DNA from: a virus
Lineage: Duplodnaviria > Heunggongvirae > Uroviricota > Caudoviricetes
DNA: 32,675 nucleotides
Direction: 5' to 3' (one strand)
Virus record (IMG/VR): IMGVR_UViG_2663763159_000003
Span: 1 to 32,675 of that record
The translations under genes were made by a program, and so were the position numbers. The notes beneath the pieces were generated by a model, which was not told the origin of the DNA, did not search any database, and saw only the letters and a list, made by a program, of their open reading frames with translations. The first letter of the stretch is position 1; each line of letters opens with the position of its first letter. Below, piece by piece: positions 13,283 through 32,675 of the stretch.

Positions 13283-13429
13283 AATCGGTTTTACCTATCA
13301 ATCATTTAATCACATTCCAAAAAAAAGTTTTCAAACCTGCGGCGATGCGAGGAAAGGTCAGGCGGCGGTACTGAGCAGCCAGGGCTGCAGGGATTTGACC
13401 CACCCCTCCCCTACAGATGGGAACTGTTA

Positions 13430-13780
13430 TCAATTGATGCGTTCGCGCGCTGTTTTTGCTTTATGGCAGGGCCAGCACAGACTCTGCAGGTTACTGTCTG
13501 CATCCGAGCCACCATGAGCTTTCGGAATGATGTGGTCCACAGTTCTGGCTTCAACGGCTCTCCCATTGCGCAGGCAGTTCTGACACAGATCATTATCACG
13601 CTTCAGTATGCGCGCACGTATGGCATCCCATTTCGAGCCATAGCCACGCTGGTGGCGACTCAGTCCGCGCTGATGCTGTACCCATCCTTCGCCACGATGT
13701 TTATCGCAGTAACCAGAACTGTCTGTGGTTGTACCTGCACATCCACGTTTACGGCAGGCTCGTGGGATTAGTGCTGGCAT
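13430..13780 (-). CDS. HNH endonuclease (terminase-associated)
   Basis: 116 aa with Cys pairs, DHIIP.AHGG and CWPCH motifs. Confidence 0.85.
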   Translation of the reverse strand: MPALIPRACRKRGCAGTTTDSSGYCDKHRGEGWVQHQRGLSRHQRGYGSKWDAIRARILKRDNDLCQNCLRNGRAVEARTVDHIIPKAHGGSDADSNLQSLCWPCHKAKTARERIN

Positions 13781-13918
13781 GTTTCGCCCTTATATAAATC
13801 AAAAGTGACCTGCATTGAGTATCTCCATGAAATAGATTTGCCGCTGATATGAGCCAGATCAATAGACTTCATGAGCTAACGGGTGTAGATATTACTTTTT
13901 ACTTCAGAGGGTTAACTC

Positions 13919-14458
13919 ATGGATATTAAGGATAAAATCAATACCATTTTGTTATGTGACATTGCCATCCACCTAGGTATCGAAACTGATATTGATCCAC
14001 AGCTTGTAAAATATGCTGTGTCATCTGGTAATGATTGGGTTATGAAGGCCGAATATTCACATTTGGATGTTGATGAACCAAGTAAAGAAGATCGTGATTT
14101 TGTTACTGCTGTCTTGAATATGTACCGCGGACTTTCCAATGCTTTCAGGAAACTTAGTGATGACGAGCAAAAAGAATTAGTCCGTGACCATCATCTAAAA
14201 ATACATGATGGGGAAATTCAGCTCCCAGGTTTCGACGGTCATAATGAATGCGATTACTTCAGTATCATTGAGGCATATCAGAAAATTGATCGCTTCCCCG
14301 AACAGAAACAGCCCATTGCCAATACTCATTCACGTACAGAACATCTCTATAACGCAATGCTTGATGAGTTTAAGAAAATTGACGCTGTAAATCGAAGCTG
14401 GGATTTATCGAAGGAAGAACTGGCATCCATTCTTTCCACAGCTCCACGCAGTTTCTAA
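13919..14458 (+). CDS. YfbU-family (UPF0304) protein, opposite-strand moron in the bor slot
   Basis: 179 aa; motif pattern (VLNMYRGL, GFDGHNE.DYF, LSKEEL) aligns by recall with E. coli YfbU; GAGGG RBS; AT-rich. Confidence 0.6.
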   Translation: MDIKDKINTILLCDIAIHLGIETDIDPQLVKYAVSSGNDWVMKAEYSHLDVDEPSKEDRDFVTAVLNMYRGLSNAFRKLSDDEQKELVRDHHLKIHDGEIQLPGFDGHNECDYFSIIEAYQKIDRFPEQKQPIANTHSRTEHLYNAMLDEFKKIDAVNRSWDLSKEELASILSTAPRSF

Positions 14459-14463
14459 GTGCT

Positions 14464-14730
14464 TTAGGCGGGTTTCCAACCCGCCTTATTATGCTCGTAT
14501 ATAGAGAAGGAAGCACCCAAATTAACCAGCGCGGATTTCTTTTCCTCAATACGGCTGTTAAGTTCAGCAACTGCATGCGGGCGTATGGCCTCAAGAAAAG
14601 CACTATATTGATAGGCAGACTGGATTGTCACACCAAGCCCTGCACCACTTTCCAGTATACCTTTCTGTCGCTGTAGCTCTTTCATCTCGTTATAGATGTA
14701 ATGTGCGTTACTTAGGTTTTCTACGTTCAC
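14464..14730 (-). CDS. Hypothetical 88-aa protein convergent with the YfbU-family gene
   Basis: ORF only; no recognised motif; could be non-coding. Confidence 0.3.
   Translation of the reverse strand: MNVENLSNAHYIYNEMKELQRQKGILESGAGLGVTIQSAYQYSAFLEAIRPHAVAELNSRIEEKKSALVNLGASFSIYEHNKAGWKPA
14469..14493 (+). terminator. Hairpin terminator downstream of the YfbU-family gene
   Basis: ggcgggtttccaacccgcc followed by ttatta; perfect 6-bp stem. Confidence 0.4.
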
Positions 14731-14885
14731 GCCCTAAGTTCTTCCTGCAGTTAGCCTGCACTGATTTGTTATGCGCCAATATGTCCCGCTTCGTCTGTTG
14801 CATTATCATAAGTAATAGCGTAGGTTGACACCTTGGCTCTCTTTCGCCACCGGCGAATCTTTAGCGGATTATCCTTGGCCGGTTT

Positions 14886-15368
14886 TTATCTGAGACATTG
14901 CTCACGAATGTATAGCTGTGCCCCTTCCAGTTGCTTCTGCATCGTCATCAACCGTTCTCTGAGGGTGAAATAATCCCGTTCAGCGGTGTCTGCCAGTCTG
15001 GGGCTGGTTGCATTATCCACGCTGGTGGGTCCGGTGGCTTCACGCACGGCTGCGGAGCAACTGGCATTGACCCGCAGGCGCTTACGACCAGCGGCAACAT
15101 CAGCGCGCAGAGTTTCATTTTCAGCTTTCGCATTGGCTAATTCTCTCGAGTACTTTGCATCGAGCGCAGCAACATCACGCTGACGCTGCTGCATGTCAGC
15201 GATGGTGGCGGTCAGCTGCTTCAGCTCACTGACTTTTTTATCACGCTGTTCTTTGTAGGTGATGGCGTTATCACGGTAATGATTGACCGCCCACGACAGG
15301 CAGACGATGATGCAGATAACCAGAGCATAAATAATCGCGGCGACTCTGCTCACTGATCTATTCCCCAA
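14886..15368 (-). CDS. Rz: Inner-membrane spanin Rz (i-spanin)
   Basis: N-terminal TM helix then coiled coil; embedded Rz1 in +1 frame; follows endolysin. Confidence 0.85.
14948..15133 (-). CDS. Rz1: Outer-membrane lipoprotein spanin Rz1 (o-spanin), embedded in Rz
   Basis: Signal peptide with lipobox LVVSAC, proline-rich mature part. Confidence 0.8.
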
Positions 15369-16635: not shown

Positions 16636-16711
16636 TGGTGCTGGTTAACGGACTTGAACCGCTACCCATTCGCTTACAAGGCGACCGCTCTACCATTGGA
16701 GCTAAACCAGC
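16636..16711 (-). tRNA. tRNA-Thr(UGU)-like, 76 nt with encoded CCA
   Basis: Hand-folded cloverleaf: acceptor GCUGGUU/AACCAGC, D-arm GCUC-CAAUGGUA-GAGC, anticodon loop CUUGUAA, T-arm AGCGG-UUCAAGU-CCGUU. Confidence 0.6.
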
Positions 16712-16716
16712 ATATT

Positions 16717-16791
16717 TGGCGGGACAGCGTGGACTCGAACCACGATAAGAAGGTTAACAGCCTTCCGTAATGACCTTTATACGACTGACCC
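16717..16791 (-). tRNA. tRNA-Asn(GUU)-like, 75 nt, deviant D-arm (possibly degenerate)
   Basis: Anticodon arm GAAGG-CUGUUAA-CCUUC, T-arm CGUGG-UUCGAGU-CCACG, acceptor with one U-U mismatch, CCA encoded. Confidence 0.45.
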
Positions 16792-16882: not shown

Positions 16883-17428
16883 CTATGCTACATGTTTAAT
16901 TTTCTCTACACGTTTCCGGTTTTTAAACGCACTATCCAGAACCGGGTAAATCATAAACAACGAGGCATTGAGGATTTCGTCAACTTCCCGTCGACAGGTT
17001 GCGAGCGATGGTTTTTGAATGCGCCCGCCGCCCCGGCATAACATCTTGCGAGGTCTTGCGACGCGATGATAGTAAGATGCAATGGCGTGCTTGGAAGAGC
17101 CGTGGGCGTAGTAGCTGAGGAGGATGCCAAAGGCTTTCTTGTCAATGTACATGACGGAATCGACGACCTGAGAAATCAACATTCCATCATCATCATTACA
17201 CATTGGCCTTGTCATAACTCTTCCCGGCTCTACGCTCTCCATGAACTTAGCTATTACGCTGCTCATGCGCTTTTCCAGACGACCTGAATAAACCCATGCG
17301 CCCCACAGTTCAAGCCAGCCATTCAGCCACTCGTGCTGTTCTTTGGTGAGGTTTAGTTCTCTTATGCCCATGCGCCTTCTCCCTTGTGATCTGGAATGGT
17401 TTTTACTGAGAACGTCATGCGGCCTCAC
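16883..17428 (-). CDS. Late-gene antiterminator Q (non-λ Q family)
   Basis: 181 aa; WGAW...C.DDD...YY pattern shared with E. coli prophage Q homologues as recalled; position between ninG and lysis genes. Confidence 0.75.
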
Positions 17429-19867: not shown

Positions 19868-20763
19868 AAATCCACCCCGTAAATCCAGTCAGTGTTTGTC
19901 AGGTCGAGTTTTGGTTTGCTGGCTGTCACGCCTGCCTGTTGCTTGTTACGGTTGATTTCGAGCTGGGTCCACTTGTCGCGGAGTTTGGCCGGACTCAGCA
20001 CGTTACCGGACCAGAAGTTGTCCTGGCAGGCCCAGCGGAAAAGCACACACATATCGCGGTGGTTACGTCCGTCACGTTCACGCATCAGGCGGATATCGTT
20101 AGCCCACCCAGCAAAATTCGGTTTTCTGGCTGATGGCGCGATGGTCTTCACCATGTCAAACATCCACTCTGCGGCGGTCAGGTCTTCTGCTGTTCCCCAC
20201 TTGCTGCCGCTCTGAATTGCAGCATCCGGTTTAACCACAGAAAGATCGTTTTCTGGCTGGTCAGAGGATTCGCCAGAATTCTCTGACGAATAATCTTTTC
20301 TTTTTTCTTTTGTAATAGTGTCTTTTGTGTCCCCCTGTTTTGAGGGATAGCAATCCCCCAATTTGAGGGATGTTTTATCCCTCGTTTTAGGGGATTTTCC
20401 CTCGTTTTGAGGGATACACCATTCTGAGATGTTTTTATTTGGTCCAAACATGCCGCCTTGCTGCTTGATAATATTCATTCTGACGAGTTCTAACTTGGCT
20501 TCATTGCACCGTTTGACAGGTAACTTTGTAATCTCGCTAAGTTGAGAATCGGTGATTCTGTCCATTGGTTTATTCCACCCATAGGTTTTACGCAGAATGG
20601 CAAGCAGCACTTTAAACTGTCGCTTGGTCAGATCTGCGCCCGAATAAGCCTCAAGCAGCATATTTGATAGTCTGGCGTAACCATCATCGAGATCTGCCAC
20701 ATTACGCTCCTGTCCGGCAAAGTTACCTCTGCCGAAGTTGAGTATTTTTGCTGTATTTGTCAT
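19864..20763 (-). CDS. O: Replication initiator O
   Basis: 299 aa, matches λ O as recalled; contains ori iterons in its coding sequence. Confidence 0.95.
   Translation of the reverse strand: MTNTAKILNFGRGNFAGQERNVADLDDGYARLSNMLLEAYSGADLTKRQFKVLLAILRKTYGWNKPMDRITDSQLSEITKLPVKRCNEAKLELVRMNIIKQQGGMFGPNKNISEWCIPQNEGKSPKTRDKTSLKLGDCYPSKQGDTKDTITKEKRKDYSSENSGESSDQPENDLSVVKPDAAIQSGSKWGTAEDLTAAEWMFDMVKTIAPSARKPNFAGWANDIRLMRERDGRNHRDMCVLFRWACQDNFWSGNVLSPAKLRDKWTQLEINRNKQQAGVTASKPKLDLTNTDWIYGVDL
20268..20415 (-). repeat. ori-λ: four ~19-bp iterons plus adjacent AT-rich region inside O
   Basis: Four tandem copies of atccctc-(a/g)ttttgagggat-type repeats at 20331..20415, AT-rich tract 20268..20330. Confidence 0.85.
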
Positions 20764-20795
20764 AATGACTCCTGTGGATTGATCCAGTAATTCCC

Positions 20796-21092
20796 TCAGA
20801 ATTGCATATCAATTTGCTTAGAGTCCCCGGCGGCCACCGGGGATTTTTTCTTTGTGATTCCATCAAGCGCATACTTAAAAGCCCTACTAATCGGACTGAT
20901 GTCTGATGCCATTCCGAAAGCACACAAGACTGAAGCAATAAATCTCCAGTCCGTTCTGCTTATCTTCGATTCATGACAGCCAATCATCTTTGCCAGACCG
21001 CGCTGGGTAATAGTTGACAGATTGATAAGTAAATCTGTTTCTGCGCGATCAACGTCACGCTGTGATAGTTTGCTGTAACTTGTTCTTTCCAT
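20796..21092 (-). CDS. cII: CII-like transcriptional activator
   Basis: 98 aa, HTH region and C-terminal ...KKKSPVAAGDSKQIDMQF resembling λ CII terminus; position between cro and O. Confidence 0.7.
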   Translation of the reverse strand: MERTSYSKLSQRDVDRAETDLLINLSTITQRGLAKMIGCHESKISRTDWRFIASVLCAFGMASDISPISRAFKYALDGITKKKSPVAAGDSKQIDMQF

Positions 21093-21195
21093 TTCTTAAG
21101 ATTTCCAATAGTGAATAGTTAGTTGAAAGGTATGCGTGGAAACGCATATGGCCTTAGTTGGTCAGATATCTTGGGACTCGCTTTTCAGCGACGTA

Positions 21196-21223
21196 GGACG
21201 AATGTCCGTTGTTACAAAGAGCG
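21196..21223 (-). promoter_or_regulatory. nutR candidate: boxA CGCUCUUUGUAACAA plus hairpin CGGAC-AUU-CGUCC
   Basis: Located just downstream of the cro stop; boxA matches consensus closely. Confidence 0.5.
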
Positions 21224-21230
21224 GGGTTAC

Positions 21231-21458
21231 TTATGCTGCCAGAAGGTTCTTTTTGCTTATTTCAAGCAATTCGCTTGCTTGATATTTGCCACCAGAAATC
21301 TCTTCGATTTTTGAGGCGTATTTCGTTTTCCCAAAAAACTCAGTCTTAGGGAGGAAGCCGTTTTTGAGCCACTTATAGACAGCCCTTTCGCTAACTCCAC
21401 AAGCCTTCGCAACTTCAGGGATGCCGACACCTTTAATCGGCTCATCAAGATTTTGCAT
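21231..21458 (-). CDS. cro: Cro-like repressor (HTH)
   Basis: 75 aa, HTH segment VAKACGVSERAVYKW, divergent from cI across a 79-bp operator region. Confidence 0.7.
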   Translation of the reverse strand: MQNLDEPIKGVGIPEVAKACGVSERAVYKWLKNGFLPKTEFFGKTKYASKIEEISGGKYQASELLEISKKNLLAA

Positions 21459-21537
21459 AGGAATATCCCTTTTTCGTACTTTTAGTACGCATTATGGTTG
21501 AACTGAAAGTTTTTGCAAGTGCTTTAGTATCGTACTC
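21459..21537. promoter_or_regulatory. OR operator / PR-PRM region
   Basis: Perfect palindrome cgtacttttagtacg at 21475..21489 and related site tttagtatcgtact at 21523..21536. Confidence 0.6.
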
Positions 21538-22245
21538 ATGGTTCAGAATGAAAAAGTGCGCAAAGAATTCGCCCAGCGGCTAGCGCAAGCCTGTAAAGAA
21601 GCTGGTCTTGATGAACATGGTAGGGGTATGGCCATAGCCCGTGCCCTTTCTCTTTCGTCCAAAGGCGTTAGCAAATGGTTTAATGCTGAGTCTTTACCGC
21701 GTCAGGAAAAAATGAATGCGCTTGCGAAATTTCTAAACGTTGATGTTGTTTGGCTTCAGCACGGCACTTCGTTAAATGGAGCGAATGATGAAGATACTCT
21801 TTCATTTGTTGGCAAATTAAAAAAAGGGTTAGTGCGCGTGGTTGGTGAGGCAATTCTTGGTGTTGATGGTGCCATCGAGATGACCGAAGAGCGCGATGGG
21901 TGGCTCAAGATTTATAGTGATGATCCAGATGCCTTTGGTCTTCGTGTGAAAGGAGACAGCATGTGGCCCAGAATAAAATCAGGAGAATATGTACTCATTG
22001 AGCCTAACACCAAAGTATTCCCGGGGGATGAGGTGTTTGTCAGAACCGTTGAAGGACACAACATGATCAAGATTCTTGGCTATGACAGAGATGGAGAATA
22101 CCAATTTACAAGCATCAACCAGGACCACAGGCCAATAACGTTACCTTATCATCAAGTAGCAAAGGTGGAGTATGTGGCTGGTATTCTGAAGCAATCTCGT
22201 CATCTGGATGACATCGAGGCAAGGGAGTGGCTGAAAAGTTTGTGA
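21538..22245 (+). CDS. cI: CI repressor (N-terminal HTH, C-terminal LexA/S24-like autopeptidase)
   Basis: 235 aa; C-terminal region with G.SM and K motifs typical of S24 peptidases; divergent from cro. Confidence 0.85.
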   Translation: MVQNEKVRKEFAQRLAQACKEAGLDEHGRGMAIARALSLSSKGVSKWFNAESLPRQEKMNALAKFLNVDVVWLQHGTSLNGANDEDTLSFVGKLKKGLVRVVGEAILGVDGAIEMTEERDGWLKIYSDDPDAFGLRVKGDSMWPRIKSGEYVLIEPNTKVFPGDEVFVRTVEGHNMIKILGYDRDGEYQFTSINQDHRPITLPYHQVAKVEYVAGILKQSRHLDDIEAREWLKSL

Positions 22246-22368
22246 CTTCAAGTACGCGACAAGCCCCGTCCTTCAGGGCGTGGAGGATGTCAAAATAACT
22301 TTAAATAACACACCACCAACATTTAACACATTGAATTAAAAAACCTACAATATTTGATGAGAGGCGTT

Positions 22369-22689
22369 ATGGAACCGGTCAAAATTAAACCATCTGTGGA
22401 TTATATTGAAACCTATGCGGACTTCGCTAGTTTTGCTCCACTACCGGGAGCGGAAAAAAATCTCATTTGTATACATTTTATCGCAAACAAGTCAATACCT
22501 GCGGTACTATCCCAAAATGATATACCAGATCAACCAGGTAGAGCGAATATGCAGATAGGCTCTGTAAATGAACTCAATCAGCAATGCACTGTGATAATGC
22601 CAATGGCACAACTAAAGGCTCTTCAAGAGAATATAGTTCTTCTTTTCGAACAATTAGAGGCACAAAACTCTAATGGAGCGAAGTCGTAA
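22369..22689 (+). CDS. Hypothetical soluble protein, first gene of the rex-slot cassette
   Basis: Start taken at MEPVK with GAGAGG RBS; stop overlaps next start (TAATG). Confidence 0.6.
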   Translation: MEPVKIKPSVDYIETYADFASFAPLPGAEKNLICIHFIANKSIPAVLSQNDIPDQPGRANMQIGSVNELNQQCTVIMPMAQLKALQENIVLLFEQLEAQNSNGAKS

Positions 22690-23372
22690 TGCAACAACCG
22701 GAAGAAGTAGGTGATTTAACTATTACTTACAAAACATCAAGTATTGTTAAACCACTGCAAGTTTCCCTGAATAACGTTAATACTCGCGATTTCATGATGT
22801 TCATGGAAACAGCAAAAGGTAATCTGTTTTCTACGCCTATTTCCTCTTATTCACCAAAAAACATGGTGGATGATGCGACCAATTCCCAGCTAACTGCTAC
22901 AATCGTAGATAAAGGAGGGGTTGCCGATTGTAAAGGACAATCTAATGTTATCCCACCGTACGAGGAAACTCCTATACAGGGAACCGCAATGTCCGATTTG
23001 AGCAGAAACGAAATACAGGCACTTCTGAAGGCAAATAAAGCTGAAGTGGATGCAGTGGCCTCAAAAATGCAGGCTGATATGGCCAAATGGCGTGAACTAA
23101 TGGCTTCAGATATAAAGGAGATGAAGCATTTAGTTGTTACTCAGCACGAACAAATCAACAGTCGTCTGGACATACAATCGAGTAGAATTGAGAGTGCCCT
23201 TGACTCCCAATCAAAAAAGATCGATGCAGCTCTTTCTGTTCAAGAGGCAAAGTTAGAAGGTAAGCTTAGTGATGTTAAGCTTGATATAATCAAATGGGCC
23301 CTTGGCTTGCCAGCATTAGCATTTACTGTATATAAAATCTACGGATTGCTCTCTGGAGTCTCAACCCCCTAA
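22689..23372 (+). CDS. Hypothetical tail-anchored coiled-coil membrane protein, second gene of the rex-slot cassette
   Basis: 227 aa; Gln/Ser/Lys-rich heptad-like region residues ~105-200; C-terminal hydrophobic helix IIKWALGLPALAFTVYKIYGLLSGV. Confidence 0.7.
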   Translation: MQQPEEVGDLTITYKTSSIVKPLQVSLNNVNTRDFMMFMETAKGNLFSTPISSYSPKNMVDDATNSQLTATIVDKGGVADCKGQSNVIPPYEETPIQGTAMSDLSRNEIQALLKANKAEVDAVASKMQADMAKWRELMASDIKEMKHLVVTQHEQINSRLDIQSSRIESALDSQSKKIDAALSVQEAKLEGKLSDVKLDIIKWALGLPALAFTVYKIYGLLSGVSTP

Positions 23373-23378
23373 TACACA

Positions 23379-23402
23379 CCCGGCCTCAGTGCCGGGTTTT
23401 CT
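23379..23402 (+). terminator. Rho-independent terminator ending the cI operon
   Basis: cccggcctcagtgccggg followed by tttt. Confidence 0.6.
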
Positions 23403-23559
23403 TTGCCCAACGTTCGCCCACCTAAAAACACATAATCGATTGTATTTATTGAAAAACTGATAGATACAACTTGCTAAACAGTGCAACCCTGATCCCTGCC
23501 CCATCACCTTCATCCTCAACATTTACAAAAATAAAATACCTTATATATCAAAACCATAT

Positions 23560-23678
23560 CTCGAGAAAACGAATGAACAACAAATTTTCGTACTTATGGT
23601 TCTTGATTGTATCGAACCAATAGTTCATTATTATCACCATCAGCAGGACGCTGGAAGCCAAATGGAACAGACTGGCAG
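23560..23678 (+). promoter_or_regulatory. pL / OL region (approximate)
   Basis: Contains ttttcgtactt at 23585..23595, the same half-site as in OR; lies upstream of nutL and N. Confidence 0.35.
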
Positions 23679-23706
23679 GCTCTTTAAACAACGTCGAACA
23701 CTCGAC
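23679..23706 (+). promoter_or_regulatory. nutL candidate: boxA GCUCUUUAAACAA plus hairpin GUCGA-ACAC-UCGAC
   Basis: boxA nearly identical to consensus; 5-bp stem immediately downstream; ~115 nt upstream of N. Confidence 0.5.
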
Positions 23707-23822
23707 TACGTGGCTGAAAAGCCAGACCACCCAACCACATAAGCTGTGGGATGCAATGCCGAAGCAACCGGCTCAGGAGGAGCTTCGAGATTGCATCGCC
23801 AAAGTTTATTCGGGAGGAATCT

Positions 23823-24095
23823 ATGTCCAGAAAAACAGAATTTAAAGGCACCGCAGCTTCTCGCCGTAGAGCTCGTCGTGCAAACCTGCAAAGTCAGGAG
23901 GCGATCAGCTCTGACAAACTACACAGGCCAACCCCTTCACGAGTGGTCTTACAATGCAAACGCAAACCAGTAATGAGAGCAGAAGTAATAACACTGACAA
24001 CGTTGACCAGAAAATATGAAGGCTCAACTTGTCTTCCAAATGTAGCCATTTACGCGGCAGGCTACAGGAAATCCAAACAGCTGACAGCAAGATGA
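23823..24095 (+). CDS. N-like antiterminator with arginine-rich motif
   Basis: Start at ATG 23823 with GGGAGG RBS; N-terminal GTAASRRRARRANLQ arginine-rich motif; position after pL/nutL. Confidence 0.7.
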   Translation: MSRKTEFKGTAASRRRARRANLQSQEAISSDKLHRPTPSRVVLQCKRKPVMRAEVITLTTLTRKYEGSTCLPNVAIYAAGYRKSKQLTAR

Positions 24096-24153
24096 CTTGT
24101 GTTGGTCGCCAGAAAATGAAATTAGGCAGCAAACCACTTATTTGAGGTGAGAT

Positions 24154-24240
24154 ATGGAAGAAGAATTTGAAGAGTTCGAAGAGCATCCTCAGGATGTGAT
24201 GGAACAATACCAGGACTATCCGTATGACTGCGACTATTGA
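24154..24240 (+). CDS. Small acidic 28-aa ORF (λ orf28-like position)
   Basis: ATG with GAGGTGAG RBS; overlaps ral start; too short to judge. Confidence 0.3.
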   Translation: MEEEFEEFEEHPQDVMEQYQDYPYDCDY

Positions 24241-24424
24241 TAAGAATCAATGGTGTGGACAATTCAAGCGATGCAATGGATGCAAGCTGCAATCGGAATG
24301 CATGGTTAAGCCTGAAGAAATGTTTCCTGTAATGGAAGATGGGAAATATGTCGATAAATGGGCAATACGAACGACGGCAATGATTGCCAGAGAACTTGGT
24401 AAACAGAACAACAAAGCTGCCTGA
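24224..24424 (+). CDS. ral: Restriction alleviation protein Ral
   Basis: 66 aa, matches λ Ral as recalled. Confidence 0.8.
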   Translation: MTATIDKNQWCGQFKRCNGCKLQSECMVKPEEMFPVMEDGKYVDKWAIRTTAMIARELGKQNNKAA

Positions 24425-24470
24425 TAGTGGCCTTTATTTTTGGCATAAATAACAGAATAAACACTGCACT

Positions 24471-24498
24471 GTGTATTCATTCCAATGAGTGAATACAC
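24471..24498. repeat. Perfect 9-bp inverted repeat gtgtattca-N10-tgaatacac
   Basis: Seen directly; non-coding region between ral and cIII. Confidence 0.6.
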
Positions 24499-24560
24499 GG
24501 AGCAATGTCGCTCGTAACTAAACAGGAGCCGACTTGTTCTGATTATTGGAAATCTTCTTT

Positions 24561-24585
24561 GCCCTCCAATGTGAGGGCCTTTTTA
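24561..24585 (+). terminator. Rho-independent terminator between ral and cIII (tL2-like position)
   Basis: gccctccaatgtgagggc followed by cttttt. Confidence 0.5.
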
Positions 24586-24650
24586 TATGCATACCAATAA
24601 CGCTTCACTCGAGGCGTTTTCGTTATGCAATCAAACAGAAGGAGCATCCT

Positions 24651-24821
24651 ATGCAACAGTTCGCTATTGCAGGGGCGGCATCGGTTCGCCCTTTCAACCC
24701 GATTTTATCGGTACAGCATTCACGAAAAAACATTTTAACCGGAGCAGACTTTAAACAACCAAGAATGAAAAGTTTGCTCGAAAAGCTTTGGGATATTTTG
24801 AAACAACAAGGCCGTCCATGA
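24651..24821 (+). CDS. cIII: CIII-like protein
   Basis: 56 aa starting MQQFAIAGA..., resembling the λ CIII N-terminus MQYAIAGW; AAGGAG RBS. Confidence 0.6.
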   Translation: MQQFAIAGAASVRPFNPILSVQHSRKNILTGADFKQPRMKSLLEKLWDILKQQGRP

Positions 24822-24902
24822 GTTTTACAGATAACTGGTCAGACGAAGAATTCATTCGTCAGATGAACAAAATGCTCAATCAGCACAAAGAACAGGAGAA
24901 AG

Positions 24903-25214
24903 ATGATGATTCTGACTCTGAATGATAAGCGTGAAATATCGCAAATAATCGCAAGTTTTACTGATGAAGATTACGAGCGAATCAACAGTGAAGTTGATCG
25001 CCTCTGCAAACGTTGCGACCCAATAAGCGAAATGCTTCGCTCATATAAACCAGATGAACACACTAAGGACGCTATCGACTGGCTGGAAGATGATGACTGT
25101 AACTATCAGGAAAAAGCCGCTGAATGGTTCTGGGATGCAATAACCGAAAGAGTTAAGGCTGAATATGCCTTCGCAATATTTAAACGCAGACACATTTTTG
25201 GAGAAGCAGCATGA
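24903..25214 (+). CDS. Hypothetical acidic 103-aa protein upstream of recT
   Basis: ORF with AGGAG RBS; stop overlaps recT start; a 34-aa ORF at 24819..24923 partly overlaps its 5' end. Confidence 0.55.
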   Translation: MMILTLNDKREISQIIASFTDEDYERINSEVDRLCKRCDPISEMLRSYKPDEHTKDAIDWLEDDDCNYQEKAAEWFWDAITERVKAEYAFAIFKRRHIFGEAA

Positions 25215-26122
25215 GCAATATCGTTGAATTCGTTAAACAGCAGGAGCAGTTATTCTGCGGAGCATTGACTGAACAGACGGTGACATGGGCTAAGGAAAGC
25301 CAGTTTGCAATTCAGTATTTCCAGAAAAACGATTACCTGGCTAAAACAGCACTGGCAAATCCAACCAGCGCACAGAACGCCATCATCAATGTTGCGGCGA
25401 TCGGCATCACCTTAAACCCTGCAAGCAAACTGGCTTATCTGGTTCCGCGCGATGGCATGGTTTGCCTTGATATCAGCTATATGGGATTGCTCCATATTGC
25501 AATGGAGTCTGGTGTTATCTCATGGGGTCAGGCAAAACTTGTTCATGCTAACGATACCTATGAGTCAAACGGGCTTGATAAAGCACCAACCCATAAATAC
25601 AACGCCTTCGGTGATCGTGGTGATATCGTTGGCGTTTACTGCACAGTTAAGACGCCGGCAGGTGATTATCTAACGGAAGAGATGAGTCTGGCTGAAATTG
25701 AGGCTGTAAGGAAAACAAGCAAGGCAGCATTCAGCGATAAAGGACCATGGGTAAATCACTGGAATGAGATGGCGCGAAAGACGGTCGTAAAGCGTGCAAG
25801 CAAGTATTGGCCTAAGGCATCACGTCTTGATAGCGCTATTCACGTACTAAACGAAGAAGAAGGTGTATGGACTGAACCAGTTATGCCGCACAAATCAGAG
25901 GAAGATATCCGCGAAGATGAACGGAAACGCCAGCAGGAAATAACGGATAAAGCACAACTTCTTTGTGATGAAATGGCTCAGGCAGAAAACATGGATGATT
26001 TGAAGCGATATTTTGCAGAAGCATATCGCCTGACATCTGGAATGAAATTGCAGCAGAACGTACAAGCCATTTACGCAGAATGCAAAGCGAAACTGGAGGT
26101 TGCCAGTGAGCAAACTGTATGA
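25211..26122 (+). CDS. recT: RecT-family single-strand annealing recombinase
   Basis: 303 aa; GPWVNHWNEMARKTVVKRASKYWP resembles the RecT signature GPWVTHWEEMAKKTAIRR. Confidence 0.85.
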   Translation: MSNIVEFVKQQEQLFCGALTEQTVTWAKESQFAIQYFQKNDYLAKTALANPTSAQNAIINVAAIGITLNPASKLAYLVPRDGMVCLDISYMGLLHIAMESGVISWGQAKLVHANDTYESNGLDKAPTHKYNAFGDRGDIVGVYCTVKTPAGDYLTEEMSLAEIEAVRKTSKAAFSDKGPWVNHWNEMARKTVVKRASKYWPKASRLDSAIHVLNEEEGVWTEPVMPHKSEEDIREDERKRQQEITDKAQLLCDEMAQAENMDDLKRYFAEAYRLTSGMKLQQNVQAIYAECKAKLEVASEQTV

Positions 26123-26588
26123 AATTGCCAATGAATACGCAAAATTGATGGATTCAGATTTAGAACCAGAGATGATTGCTGACACAATAGAAGGCATGGA
26201 AGGAGAATTTACCGATAAAATAGAGCAACTTCTTTCCGTCATTAAAAATGAATCTGGTTATGCTGAACGCCTCAAGGAAGAGGCAAAGTCACTGAATGAG
26301 CGAGCCGCAGTAATTCAAAATAAGATTGAGAGCATCAAATCATATATAGCGTCATCGCTTGAAATGGTTGGCAAGAAAAAGATTCGAGCAGGTATTCACC
26401 AGGTAACAATCCGCAAACCGTCAGAAACTGTAGAAATCATCGACTCAAGCGCCCTTCCTCCTGAATACGTTGAGTTTGAAACGACAATTAAAGCCGACAA
26501 ACTGGCAATCAAACACCAACTAAAAGCAGGAATAAATATCCCCGGCGCTCAACTCAAAGTTGGGAAACCTTCACTTCTTATCAAATAA
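26100..26588 (+). CDS. Siphovirus Gp157-like protein
   Basis: 162 aa; coiled-coil N-terminal half; non-ATG start (TTG 26100 or GTG 26106) overlapping recT end. Confidence 0.55.
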   Translation: MPVSKLYEIANEYAKLMDSDLEPEMIADTIEGMEGEFTDKIEQLLSVIKNESGYAERLKEEAKSLNERAAVIQNKIESIKSYIASSLEMVGKKKIRAGIHQVTIRKPSETVEIIDSSALPPEYVEFETTIKADKLAIKHQLKAGINIPGAQLKVGKPSLLIK

Positions 26589-26599
26589 CGGTATCGACT

Positions 26600-26914
26600 A
26601 TGAAAAAGACTCCATGGGAGAAATGGGAAGTCGATTTCTTGCGCGAGGTAGCGGCGACAATGCCAGTTGAAGTTATCGCTGAAAAACTGGAAAGGACTGA
26701 AAAAGCAGTAATGGCGAAAGCAACAAGGATTGGCGCTGACATTGTTAGCCGACTTCGTGGAAGACGATGGACAAGAGCCGAAGTATCACTTTTCGGTAAG
26801 TTCTCCGCAGAAGAAATAGCAATTGCAACCTGCCGCTCAATTTATTCAGTAAGAGCTATGCGATACAAGCTAAAAAAACTCGATGAAGAAAGAGCAGGCA
26901 TACGAATAAATTAA
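26600..26914 (+). CDS. Hypothetical 104-aa protein (possible DNA-binding)
   Basis: ORF only. Confidence 0.55.
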   Translation: MKKTPWEKWEVDFLREVAATMPVEVIAEKLERTEKAVMAKATRIGADIVSRLRGRRWTRAEVSLFGKFSAEEIAIATCRSIYSVRAMRYKLKKLDEERAGIRIN

Positions 26915-26930
26915 CATGGAGTAATTAACA

Positions 26931-27212
26931 ATGAAGCTAAACATCGACCTTGGAAAATACGTTATTACCGGAACCAAACACGACCTGATTCTTAGTGAAA
27001 GAGGAATTATCAAAGAAGGCGAGAATGCAGGGAAAGAAACACTAAGTCGTATCGGTTATTACAGCAAGTTTGAGCATCTGGTTAAAGAGTTATGCAACCG
27101 TGAAATCCTGTTATCTCAGGCGCAGACACTACAGGATATTCAGCAGCATATCGAGACTTTAGGTGTATCACTTAGCACGGCTGTTGACCAGTTCGCGGAG
27201 AGTAAATCATGA
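26931..27212 (+). CDS. Hypothetical 93-aa protein
   Basis: ORF with GGAG RBS. Confidence 0.55.
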
Positions 27213-27376
27213 GAGGACTTGCATACAATCCCGGCATTCTTCCGGCAGAAATGATTATTCGCCAACGCGTAAAGCCAATGCCATCGAGAGAGGAATTGCT
27301 TAAGAGAAATTCTTTTCCATCAGTGAATCAAAACAAATATCTGAATTCGATGTGGCGCAAAGGAGGCAAGCAGTGA
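27209..27376 (+). CDS. Hypothetical 55-aa protein
   Basis: ATGA overlap with upstream stop; below ORF-track cutoff. Confidence 0.35.
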
Positions 27377-27627
27377 GTAATTCCGCACGACTACAGCTTG
27401 GTTTTTCACCGCTATCAAAAACTATCATGCTGGCAAAAATGCGCGATGTTGAAGGTGGACGTATGCGCGTTGGCAATGATCCAGGTCGTGATGTTACCAA
27501 TGAGGCTGCTCAATTGGTGTGGCGACTGGTCATGGCTGAAGGTGGTGAGATCGCGTGGGAACTTGATGATGGTTCTCGCATGGTGTTGAAGGCAGAGAAG
27601 CAGGAGACAACCAGTGAGCAAGATTGA
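27373..27627 (+). CDS. Hypothetical ~84-aa protein
   Basis: GTG start after AGGAGG RBS, overlapping upstream stop. Confidence 0.5.
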
Positions 27628-29862: not shown

Positions 29863-30081
29863 ATGTACTTGACACTTCAGGAGTGGAACGCACGCCAGCG
29901 ACGCCCAAGAAGCCTTGAAACAGTTCGTCGATGGGTACGCGAGTGCAGGATATTCCCTCCTCCGGTTAAGGATGGAAGAGAGTATCTGTTCCACGAATCA
30001 GCGGTAAAGGTTGACTTAAATCGACCAGTAACAGGTAGCCTTTTGAAGAGGATCAGAAATGGGAAGAAGGCGAAGTCATGA
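29863..30081 (+). CDS. xis: Excisionase
   Basis: 72 aa, matches λ Xis as recalled. Confidence 0.95.
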   Translation: MYLTLQEWNARQRRPRSLETVRRWVRECRIFPPPVKDGREYLFHESAVKVDLNRPVTGSLLKRIRNGKKAKS

Positions 30082-31129
30082 GCGCCGGGATTTACCCCCT
30101 AACCTTTATATAAGAAACAATGGATATTACTGCTACAGGGACCCAAGGACGGGTAAAGAGTTTGGATTAGGCAGAGACAGGCGAATCGCAATCACTGAAG
30201 CTATACAGGCCAACATTGAGTTATTTTCAGGACACAAACACAAGCCTCTGACAGCGAGAATCAACAGTGATAATTCCGTTACGTTACATTCATGGCTTGA
30301 TCGCTACGAAAAAATCCTGGCCAGCAGAGGAATCAAGCAGAAGACACTCATAAATTACATGAGCAAAATTAAAGCAATAAGGAGGGGTCTGCCTGATGCT
30401 CCACTTGAAGACATCACCACAAAAGAAATTGCGGCAATGCTCAATGGATACATAGACGAGGGCAAGGCGGCGTCAGCCAAGTTAATCAGATCAACACTGA
30501 GCGATGCATTCCGAGAGGCAATAGCTGAAGGCCATATAACAACAAACCCTGTCGCTGCCACTCGCGCAGCAAAATCAGAGGTAAGGAGATCAAGACTTAC
30601 GGCTGACGAATACCTGAAAATTTATCAAGCAGCAGAATCATTACCATGTTGGCTCAGACTTGCAATGGAACTGGCTGTTGTTACCGGGCAACGAGTTGGT
30701 GATTTATGCGAAATGAAGTGGTCTGATATCGTAGATGGATATCTTTATGTCGAGCAAAGCAAAACAGGCGTAAAAATTGCCATCCCAACAGTATTGCATG
30801 TTGATGCTCTCGGAATATCAATGAAGGAAACACTTGATAAATGCAAAGAGATTCTTGGCGGAGAAACCATAATTGCATCTACTCGTCGCGAACCGCTTTC
30901 ATCCGGCACAGTATCAAGGTATTTTATGCGCGCACGAAAAGCATCAGGTCTTTCCTTCGAAGGGGATCCGCCTACCTTTCACGAGTTGCGCAGTTTGTCT
31001 GCAAGACTCTATGAGAAGCAGATAAGCGATAAGTTTGCTCAACATCTTCTCGGGCATAAGTCGGACACCATGGCATCACAGTATCGTGATGACAGAGGCA
31101 GGGAGTGGGACAAAATTGAAATCAAATAA
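30059..31129 (+). CDS. int: Integrase (tyrosine recombinase)
   Basis: 356 aa, matches λ Int as recalled; start overlaps xis end. Confidence 0.95.
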   Translation: MGRRRSHERRDLPPNLYIRNNGYYCYRDPRTGKEFGLGRDRRIAITEAIQANIELFSGHKHKPLTARINSDNSVTLHSWLDRYEKILASRGIKQKTLINYMSKIKAIRRGLPDAPLEDITTKEIAAMLNGYIDEGKAASAKLIRSTLSDAFREAIAEGHITTNPVAATRAAKSEVRRSRLTADEYLKIYQAAESLPCWLRLAMELAVVTGQRVGDLCEMKWSDIVDGYLYVEQSKTGVKIAIPTVLHVDALGISMKETLDKCKEILGGETIIASTRREPLSSGTVSRYFMRARKASGLSFEGDPPTFHELRSLSARLYEKQISDKFAQHLLGHKSDTMASQYRDDRGREWDKIEIK

Positions 31130-31217
31130 TGATTTTATTTTGACTGATAGTGACCTGTTCGTTGCAACAAATTGATAAGCAATGCTTTTTTATAATGCCA
31201 ACTTAGTATAAAAAAGC
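31130..31217. other. attL: λ P' arm and 15-bp core (reverse complement of GCTTTTTTATACTAA at 31203..31217) joined to host B arm
   Basis: Sequence gattttattttgactgatagtgacctgttcgttgcaacaaattgataagcaatgcttttttataatgccaacttagtataaaaaagc matches the λ attP P' arm as recalled, then diverges into host sequence. Confidence 0.85.
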
Positions 31218-31263
31218 AGGCTTCAACGGATTCATTTTTCTATTTCATAGCCCGGAGCAACCT

Positions 31264-32547
31264 GTGAACACATTTTCAGTTTCCCGTCTGGCGCTGGCAT
31301 TGGCTTTTGGCGTGACGCTGACCGCCTGTAGCTCAACACCGCCCGATCAACGTCCTTCTGATCAAACCGCGCCTGGTACCTCTTCACGCCCGATTCTGTC
31401 GGCAAAAGAAGCGCAGAATTTCGATGCTCAACACTATTTTGCATCCCTGACACCAGGTGCGGCAGCGTGGAATCCTTCCCCAATTACCTTGCCTGCGCAA
31501 CCTGACTTTGTTGTCGGCCCGGCGGGTACTCAAGGTGTAACGCATACCACGATTCAGGCGGCGGTAGATGCGGCAATTATCAAGCGTACCAACAAGCGCC
31601 AGTATATTGCCGTGATGCCTGGTGAGTATCAGGGAACGGTATATGTCCCTGCCGCTCCGGGTGGAATTACTCTGTACGGTACAGGTGAAAAACCGATTGA
31701 TGTGAAGATTGGGCTTTCCCTTGATGGGGGCATGAGCCCTGCCGACTGGCGTCACGACGTCAACCCGCGCGGCAAATATATGCCAGGTAAACCAGCGTGG
31801 TATATGTACGATAGCTGCCAGAGCAAACGCAGCGACAGTATCGGTGTTCTCTGCTCTGCGGTCTTCTGGTCACAAAACAATGGCCTGCAACTGCAAAACC
31901 TGACCATCGAAAACACGCTGGGTGATAGCGTAGATGCGGGTAACCATCCGGCGGTGGCACTGCGTACTGATGGTGACCAGGTACAGATTAACAACGTTAA
32001 CATTCTCGGTCGTCAGAACACCTTCTTTGTCACCAATAGCGGTGTGCAGAACCGTCTGGAAACGAATCGTCAGCCGCGTACGCTGGTGACCAACAGCTAT
32101 ATTGAAGGGGATGTGGATATCGTTTCTGGTCGCGGCGCAGTGGTGTTCGATAACACCGAATTCCGCGTGGTGAACTCCCGTACCCAGCAAGAAGCGTATG
32201 TGTTTGCACCGGCTACGCTGTCCAACATTTACTACGGTTTCCTCGCCGTAAACAGCCGTTTCAATGCTTCCGGTGATGGCGTGGCGCAACTGGGCCGCTC
32301 GCTGGATGTTGATGCCAATACCAACGGTCAGGTGGTGATCCGTGATAGCGCCATCAACGAAGGTTTTAACACGGCGAAACCGTGGGCCGATGCGGTGATT
32401 TCCAATCGTCCATTCGCAGGTAACACCGGCAGTGTTGACGATAGCGACGAAATACAACGCAATATGAATGACACTAACTACAACCGCATGTGGGAATACA
32501 ATAACCGCGGCGTGGGTAGCAAAGTGGTTGCAGAGGCGAAGAAGTAA
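31264..32547 (+). CDS. ybhC: Host lipoprotein YbhC (pectinesterase-like / acyl-CoA thioesterase)
   Basis: 427 aa, GTG start, lipobox LTACS, parallel beta-helix-like repeats; known neighbour of attλ. Confidence 0.8.
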   Translation: MNTFSVSRLALALAFGVTLTACSSTPPDQRPSDQTAPGTSSRPILSAKEAQNFDAQHYFASLTPGAAAWNPSPITLPAQPDFVVGPAGTQGVTHTTIQAAVDAAIIKRTNKRQYIAVMPGEYQGTVYVPAAPGGITLYGTGEKPIDVKIGLSLDGGMSPADWRHDVNPRGKYMPGKPAWYMYDSCQSKRSDSIGVLCSAVFWSQNNGLQLQNLTIENTLGDSVDAGNHPAVALRTDGDQVQINNVNILGRQNTFFVTNSGVQNRLETNRQPRTLVTNSYIEGDVDIVSGRGAVVFDNTEFRVVNSRTQQEAYVFAPATLSNIYYGFLAVNSRFNASGDGVAQLGRSLDVDANTNGQVVIRDSAINEGFNTAKPWADAVISNRPFAGNTGSVDDSDEIQRNMNDTNYNRMWEYNNRGVGSKVVAEAKK

Positions 32548-32558
32548 AAAATAAATAT

Positions 32559-32582
32559 CCTCCGGCATAGCCGGAGGTTTTT
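32559..32582 (+). terminator. Rho-independent terminator after ybhC
   Basis: cctccggcatagccggagg followed by ttttt. Confidence 0.6.
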
Positions 32583-32675
32583 CAAATGCGCCTATAAGGC
32601 TCTCTTACCAGCCGCGCCCTAACAGGCGCACACGATCTGACATTTGCATCCAACTTCGTTACTTACGGCCCGTAA

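Follow-up and report, generated by a model that had tools for sequence, protein, structure and literature searches.

Kamadhenu, a single-gene system of the Lactococcus plasmid pUCCL624, encodes a 180-aa protein with the YfbU fold and confers an abortive-infection (Abi)-type phenotype (Grafakou et al. 2024, PMC11381338). Phage mutants escaping Kamadhenu all alter residue G22 of a Sak-like single-strand annealing protein (SSAP) (Mosterd et al. 2025, PMC12184496), and according to a 2026 review phage DNA replication, transcription and translation are unaffected by the system, an observation suggesting that it acts late in infection (PMC13064643). In Escherichia coli, yfbU itself has been described as a 'death gene' that is required for mazEF-dependent killing after DNA damage (Amitai et al. 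2009, PMC2646832). In the 30 papers mentioning YfbU in the literature collection searched, no prophage-borne copy of the gene has been described. Here we analyze such a copy, the plus-strand open reading frame (ORF) 13919-14458 of the viral record IMGVR_UViG_2663763159_000003, a stretch of 32,675 nucleotides that was studied over its whole length and is called the window in the following.

The YfbU-like gene resides in a 722-bp autonomous cargo cassette, a classical moron, that fills the bor/iss slot in a lambdoid prophage of E. coli. The window sequence recurs with 100% identity in the chromosome of E. coli strain 50579417 (NZ_CP033884.1), where it takes in a lambdoid prophage inserted beside ybhC. 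The late genes of this prophage run on the minus strand in the order Q, two tRNAs, holin, DUF1327/YdfR, lysozyme, Rz, an 88-aa ORF, HNH and the terminase genes TerS and TerL, and the YfbU-like gene with its 179 codons is the sole plus-strand interruption of this late region. The elements of the slot and its surroundings are:

13430-13780, minus strand: HNH endonuclease gene, which borders the slot on the left and opens the packaging module (PF01844, E 2e-16; RefSeq annotation)
13781-14502, no strand assigned: moron unit of 722 bp, made up of 138 bp upstream, the ORF and a 44-bp hairpin tail
13863-13893, plus strand: weak sigma-70-like element, TAGACT (13863-13868), 19-nt spacer and GATATT (13888-13893), ~25 nt 5' of the ATG
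13906-13911, plus strand: putative Shine-Dalgarno element AGAGGG, read from the sequence, 7-8 nt 5' of the ATG
13919-14458, plus strand: gene of the YfbU-fold protein, 179 aa, RefSeq WP_001532432.1
14464-14730, minus strand: phrog_5415 late gene (76-aa family), 88 aa here, with extra codons at 14464-14502
14466-14486, plus strand: terminator-like hairpin with a 9-bp GC-rich stem and a 3-nt loop, 8 nt past the stop codon
14886-15368, minus strand: Rz spanin gene, which closes the lysis cassette and borders the slot on the right (PF03245, E 2e-49)
16883-17428, minus strand: Q gene of the late region

Both insertion junctions were mapped. On the left side (13780/13781), homology to prophages with iss, with a GNAT acetyltransferase gene or with an empty slot stops exactly at 13780, the start codon of HNH, and on the right side (14502/14503) nucleotide homology to prophages with a normal 76-aa late gene stops at 14503, in codon 76. 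The GC content is 0.38-0.40 across the YfbU-like gene (0.39 for the ORF) versus 0.50-0.54 on both sides (0.53-0.54 for the flanks in the comparison with the ORF), and 0.41 for the block 13781-14745 versus 0.49 for the whole window; the ORF ranks among the lowest 1.2% of the window's 540-bp windows, and no other trough in the late half goes below 0.42. An extra gene between otherwise adjacent genes, a terminator-like hairpin of its own and a deviant base composition are among the hallmarks of a moron, and all three are present here; a further hallmark, a promoter of its own that is active in the lysogen, may be represented by the weak sigma-70-like element. The first-pass annotation of the window had thus been right to see a lone plus-strand gene between the lysis cassette and the HNH/terminase genes, opposed to the minus-strand late operon, with its own ribosome-binding site; its proposal of AT-rich acquired cargo is borne out by the composition, including the windowed GC calculation that it had named as a check, and by the two junctions. 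The downstream hairpin that it reported exists as well, a few bases away from where it had been placed.

Two further observations concern the junctions and the base composition. Just inside the left junction (13781-13815, minus strand) the window retains ATGCAGGTCACTTTTGAT (MQVTFD...), and this retained start matches that of a 485-aa gene (MQVTID..., 4884-4901 of locus L006) adjoining the YfbU-like gene in L006, a prophage locus with a 62%-identical homologue. The remnant suggests a recombination scar and an arrival of the cassette from an L006-like arrangement. More stretches with a GC content below 0.42 are found at ~20200-27400, in the early/accessory region with Ral, RecT, Gp157, ead/Ea22-like and several hypothetical genes, and at 30700-31300 in the int region; the minimum of the window, 0.37, lies near 22290.

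What else the slot can hold became apparent from comparators retrieved from E. coli genomes with the HNH-to-Rz stretch as query. Between the same HNH and Rz flanks, one prophage (L003) carries iss, the homologue of bor, on the strand used here by the YfbU-like gene, a second (L004) carries a GNAT acetyltransferase gene and a 66-aa ORF, and in a third (L005) the slot is empty, with 42 bp separating HNH from Rz; in L023, a 76-aa gene and a 77-aa gene are followed by HNH. Since sister prophages whose slot has these flanks hold iss here, oriented alike, the term 'bor slot', which the first-pass annotation had already applied, is to be taken literally and not as an analogy.

The placement is conserved on phage backbones of different make. 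We examined it at seven loci, namely the window and six further loci whose YfbU-like proteins are 82, 80, 73, 62, 57 and 53% identical to the window protein. At all seven, it is bordered by the lysis genes on one side and the small terminase gene on the other and has an antisense orientation relative to the late operon. This arrangement recurs over three terminase types (Terminase_4/TerL, Terminase_2/6 and Nu1-like/GpA) and three lysis types (P21-type holin with lysozyme and Rz; holin_3_7/holin_8 with GH19 endolysin; DUF2514 spanin). The YfbU-like genes are uniformly GC-poor, at 0.28-0.44 compared to 0.41-0.55 for their loci. Several of them share the slot with genes of defense type: L006 also holds a Ser/Thr kinase (5990-7488, minus strand) that matches the defense models PD-T4-6, Stk2 and mad6 (E 1e-30 to 1e-34), alongside a PP2C phosphatase, and L020 holds a 292-aa TIR-domain protein (1397-2275, plus strand; TIR_2, E 6e-22). 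In L019, whose YfbU-like protein is the 80%-identical one, an adjacent small ORF (4620-4877, minus strand, late sense) matches the Acb2/Tad1 hairpin family PF24729 with 40.5 bits versus a cutoff of 27, so that cargo of counter-defense type, Acb2/Tad1 being a sponge fold directed against CBASS and Thoeris, shares the slot on the late strand. Outside prophages, a YfbU-family gene of an 8-kb Acinetobacter plasmid has an Abi_2 protein (E 2e-50) two genes away, and the lactococcal YfbU-family copy lies near LlaJI restriction-modification genes. The paper on svsR, a small RNA of a lambdoid prophage that limits phage infection, proved unrelated to this slot.

By profile and fold, the product of the gene is a member of the YfbU (UPF0304) family, as the first-pass annotation had assigned it. 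The Pfam search that it had named as a check matches PF03887 to residues 47-172 with 44.1 bits versus a gathering cutoff of 25 (E 3e-11); PF03887 is present in all close homologues, the YfbU fold extends over the whole protein and is shared with the two-domain, helical structure PDB 1WPB over 155 residues, and the RefSeq name is already 'YfbU family protein'. The likeness to E. coli YfbU is of a more distant kind. Identity is 17-20%, the NCBIfam equivalog model NF003936 reaches 33.8 bits versus a cutoff of 90, by which the protein fails as a canonical YfbU orthologue, and pairwise comparison did not detect E. coli YfbU, neither in a phmmer search against PDB sequences nor by BLASTP (20% identity, E 0.036). 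Because these pairwise searches failed, the link between the window protein and E. coli YfbU is one of profile and fold methods only, and it is at this level that the earlier alignment stands. The accompanying remark that the family has no assigned function is outdated, since Kamadhenu has been shown to be an abortive-infection system (PMC11381338, PMC12184496). A Pfam match to Bor/Iss is absent from the protein, which matches YfbU alone, so the likeness to Bor/Iss is positional.

An exhaustive profile search returned 909 representatives at E<=1e-3, 299 at E<=1e-10 and just 7 at E<=1e-30, which makes the prophage clade a small and tight one within a broad family of ~175-185 aa. Family-wide, G104, E110, N135 and Y144 are invariant and Y69, F105, D106 and H137 nearly so, and the N-terminal helix region splits an 'LLCDI' group, to which the window protein belongs, from a 'LANQYEIL' group comprising E. 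coli YfbU and the Enterococcus and Lactococcus proteins. The window protein forms a branch of its own in the YfbU family. We also considered a Kamadhenu-specific subfamily that would include the window protein and rejected it, the lactococcal protein being nearer to canonical YfbU. In a fold search of BFVD, a single predicted viral protein was significant (A0A1X9IGI8; TM ~0.72, 21% identity, 171 aa); catalogued viral proteins rarely have the YfbU fold.

The gene is preserved where it occurs. Over 27 homologues, the length is constant at 179-181 aa and 24 residues are invariant, and where dS is unsaturated dN/dS amounts to 0.07-0.14, a value that rests on three pairs because dS is saturated in most pairs of homologues. 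Codon substitutions in these pairs show the YfbU-like gene to be under purifying selection. Among complete E. coli genomes, it is found in 244 out of 5426 (~4.5%), including ST131 clinical isolates, and always in the chromosome, whereas canonical yfbU is core (5426 of 5426), encodes 164 aa and lies in the context ackA-yfbV-yfbU-hxpA. YfbU-family genes furthermore occur on more than 300 PLSDB plasmid records, ~260 of them from Enterococcus.

The neighboring 88-aa ORF is best understood as a late gene altered by the insertion. Its family has at least 276 clusters and a normal length of 76 aa, and the 76-aa members are ordinary late genes after the spanin in prophages that lack the YfbU-like gene. 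In the window, the original TAA stop now reads ATA, and the frame gains 12 codons (IYEHNKAGWKPA) through the hairpin of the moron; the length of 88 aa thus results from the replacement of the stop codon of the 76-aa gene by the insertion, and it is confined to E. coli copies adjoining the YfbU-like gene. None of the six other YfbU-like loci contains the ORF. With this neighbor missing elsewhere and no partner shared between the seven contexts, the YfbU-like gene stands alone. At plasmid loci (L021, 4526-5038; L028, 4486-4998; L014, 3242-3802), YfbU-family genes have other ORFs beside them: on plasmids of Enterococcus and Raoultella they are located 3-7 nt from an uncharacterized ~170-aa ORF without Pfam match, and on an E. 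faecalis plasmid a 186-aa ORF lies upstream of the YfbU-family gene; some branches of the family may hence be two-gene systems, unlike the prophage clade.

The hairpin 14466-14486 folds with -20.1 kcal/mol (z -3.1) and is terminator-like for the plus strand only, the minus strand being without a T-tract. A consensus terminator scanner made no call on it because the tail holds only four T. At other loci, a stem-loop follows each plus-strand cargo gene of the slot, including iss and GNAT. An Rfam search of 13300-15000 returned no RNA family. The window and L006 share the start region CAGAG(G/A)GGT.AA.TCATG, and in L006 a TGGACT-18-AAGAAT element is found at an equal distance from the ATG as the sigma-70-like element of the window; this positional match of promoter-like sequences is suggestive only. 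We infer that the gene is expressed in lysogens.

Given that a member of the family, Kamadhenu, is a proven single-gene abortive-infection system, the YfbU-like gene is a candidate for a lysogen-expressed anti-phage gene. We tentatively propose, as the explanation that we favor, that it is a single-protein moron of abortive-infection type, a reading that we hold to be a real possibility, if still short of probable. The lysogen would produce the protein from the weak promoter of the cassette, and the protein would act, as a single-protein Abi-type defense, against superinfecting phages. By analogy with Kamadhenu, the trigger could be a product or an intermediate arising from the recombination machinery of the invader, such as its SSAP or single-stranded DNA (ssDNA) intermediates, and the response would be to block a late step of infection or to arrest the cell. 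The SSAP of the prophage itself is a RecT-family protein, encoded at ~25211-26122. When this prophage is induced, Q-antiterminated late transcription would run antisense through the gene and might damp its expression. Anti-phage activity, trigger and antisense silencing are here predicted by analogy; purifying selection, conserved placement, the stand-alone gene, defense-type slot-mates, a family spread on mobile elements and the Kamadhenu precedent are all consistent with a role in defense.

Several observations weigh against such a role or against its derivation from Kamadhenu. As comparison protein from Lactococcus we used the copy of plasmid pUCCL629C, which belongs to the same collection and stands in for Kamadhenu (pUCCL624_130), in reconstructed form. 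Against this protein, the window protein shows 30% identity over 70 aa (E 5e-7; clade profile, 31.6 bits); E. coli YfbU (79 bits, E 4e-23) is a closer match to the lactococcal protein than the window protein is, and the N-terminal helix region of the window protein differs from that of the lactococcal group. Because the lactococcal protein is closer to E. coli YfbU, a transfer of function from Kamadhenu is possible at the family level only. A 49%-identity relative is carried by a conjugative Kosakonia plasmid, in an accessory region close to a RES-Xre toxin-antitoxin pair, and not by a prophage, which limits the placement rule to the tighter clade, and the slot is not reserved for defense, as it also takes iss and GNAT cargo, which is not anti-phage. 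A standard promoter scan yielded no sigma-70 consensus on the plus strand, and the element at 13863-13893 emerged from a relaxed scan with 8 of 12 matches and a 19-nt spacer, which is weak evidence for a promoter. AT-rich cargo in E. coli is, moreover, frequently silenced by H-NS. PADLOC returned no match, a null result that is uninformative since its library, of 2023, predates Kamadhenu.

The reconstruction of the pUCCL629C protein needs a comment. In this plasmid (NZ_PP589679.1; L017, 4257-4798), the Kamadhenu-type gene is annotated as two overlapping coding sequences, owing to a frameshift in a T-run; adding one T to the run restores a 180-aa protein carrying GFDGNEE. The frameshift reflects either a pseudogene or a homopolymer sequencing error.

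One may go further and regard the YfbU fold as a widespread stand-alone immune or cell-fate effector, of which the prophage clade would be the SSAP- or ssDNA-sensing Abi form in E. coli and core yfbU, for long an orphan UPF gene with a link to death upon DNA damage, a domesticated or ancestral relative working by the same principle. We consider this generalization rather doubtful.

Among the alternatives to an anti-phage moron, a lysogenic-conversion factor acting on host physiology survives best: the protein would be a divergent YfbU that alters the DNA-damage or stress response and so tunes the SOS-inducible prophage and the survival of its host. Such a role would suit a slot that classically houses host-fitness cargo (bor, iss) and a family of which the E. 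coli member is a reported 'death gene' for mazEF-dependent killing (PMC2646832), and the prophage encodes a LexA-family repressor. Every lysogen already has canonical yfbU and the prophage copy would thus be an added paralogue; yet with just 17-20% identity to host YfbU and a differing N-terminal region, it is doubtful that the two share partners or co-assemble. The sole mobile-element-borne family member that has been tested at the molecular level is anti-phage, and at other loci defense and counter-defense genes occupy the slot, both of which argue for defense rather than for host conversion. The literature on the mazEF death pathway is, in addition, contested. Altogether, we consider it unlikely that the gene is a host-conversion factor.

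A benefit to the phage during infection or induction, for instance counter-defense or protection from death against host YfbU-dependent or other abortive responses, with early or read-through expression, appears quite improbable to us. Counter-defense cargo does occur in the slot, as the Acb2/Tad1-like ORF of L019 illustrates, but these ORFs are on the late strand, while the YfbU-like gene runs against the sole strong lytic transcript across the region, with its own terminator-like hairpin facing that transcript. The layout of bor/iss type is associated with expression in the lysogen, as for lambda bor. The weak promoter could require activation and host YfbU is implicated in cell death, as such a role would have it; a dominant-negative assembly is, however, unlikely given the divergence from host YfbU.

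That the gene is a neutral hitch-hiker or a decaying remnant without current function would accord with its patchy occurrence (4.5% of E. coli genomes), its weak promoter and a fold without known biochemical activity, but is made highly improbable by the dN/dS of 0.07-0.14, by a constant length and 24 invariant residues over 27 homologues, and by the position and orientation kept on unrelated phage backbones. A toxin-antitoxin or other two-gene module with the 88-aa ORF, hinted at by the convergent arrangement with stop codons 5 nt apart, the overlap of the ORF's 3' end with the hairpin and the location of both genes inside a block that varies relative to some comparators, is effectively refuted by the ORF's absence from the other YfbU-like loci and its membership in a much larger, independent 76-aa family of late operons, the overlap being a by-product of the replaced stop codon.

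Some further features of the prophage deserve mention. A 61-aa ORF (14948-15133, minus strand), out of frame within Rz, starts with a signal peptide and lipobox and is expected from its sequence to be the Rz1 o-spanin gene. Between Q and holin, two tRNA genes (~16636-16791, minus strand; Thr and Asn in RefSeq) are located; at the corresponding place, the related phage vB_EcoS-689R5 carries other tRNA genes (Gly, Thr, Met), and its Q differs as well. At ~30059-32675, integrase and excisionase genes adjoin host ybhC, in the neighborhood of lambda attB, with an IS200C transposase just past it, and the window hence spans the prophage-host junction.

The YfbU annotation of the gene, the slot and the moron concept, and a defense system with the YfbU fold were already known; our study adds the link among these, the precise boundaries of the cassette and the conserved placement across phage backbones. 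Should the protein prove to be anti-phage, it would represent a very small single-gene defense in ~4.5% of complete E. coli genomes, ST131 clinical isolates among them, and a tractable E. coli model for the mechanism of this defense family. E. coli would then be the best genetic system for learning how a ~180-aa helical protein without a recognizable enzymatic domain senses phage recombination proteins and brings the infection to an abortive end. Should it not be anti-phage, the locus would still be a clean textbook moron with a conserved protein. In either case, the Rz-terminase junction of lambdoid prophages is an exchange point for virulence (iss), defense-type (TIR, PD-T4-6-like kinase) and counter-defense-type (Acb2/Tad1-like) cargo.

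In comparison with known systems, the window gene resembles Kamadhenu in being a single gene for a protein of ~180 aa (179 here) with a YfbU domain and without an obligatory partner; it differs in its carrier, a prophage instead of a plasmid, and in the phylum of its host, and anti-phage activity is known for the lactococcal protein only. With E. coli YfbU (UPF0304; PDB 1WPB and 4LR3), which forms crystals with 16 chains, it shares the fold, the Pfam family and the conserved GFD...E, N.H and Y positions, but it is accessory and prophage-borne, between Rz and HNH, where E. coli yfbU is a core chromosomal gene. Outside the prophage clade, the nearest relative is gp036 of Yersinia phage vB_YenM_324, of the 'LLCDI' subgroup (31% identity over 175 aa, E 1e-19), followed within this subgroup by small-plasmid YfbU proteins from Acinetobacter (28% identity, E 5e-18). 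The Yersinia phage copy is placed differently, after baseplate and tail genes near the end of the genome; the idea that it sits in the P2 Z/fun defense hotspot was withdrawn, its neighbors being baseplate proteins. With lambda bor and E. coli iss, finally, the gene has in common the slot after Rz and before the packaging genes, the orientation antisense to the late operon and a terminator of its own, whereas its product, which appears cytoplasmic and is helical with a YfbU fold, is unlike Bor/Iss, a ~97-aa outer-membrane lipoprotein of serum resistance.

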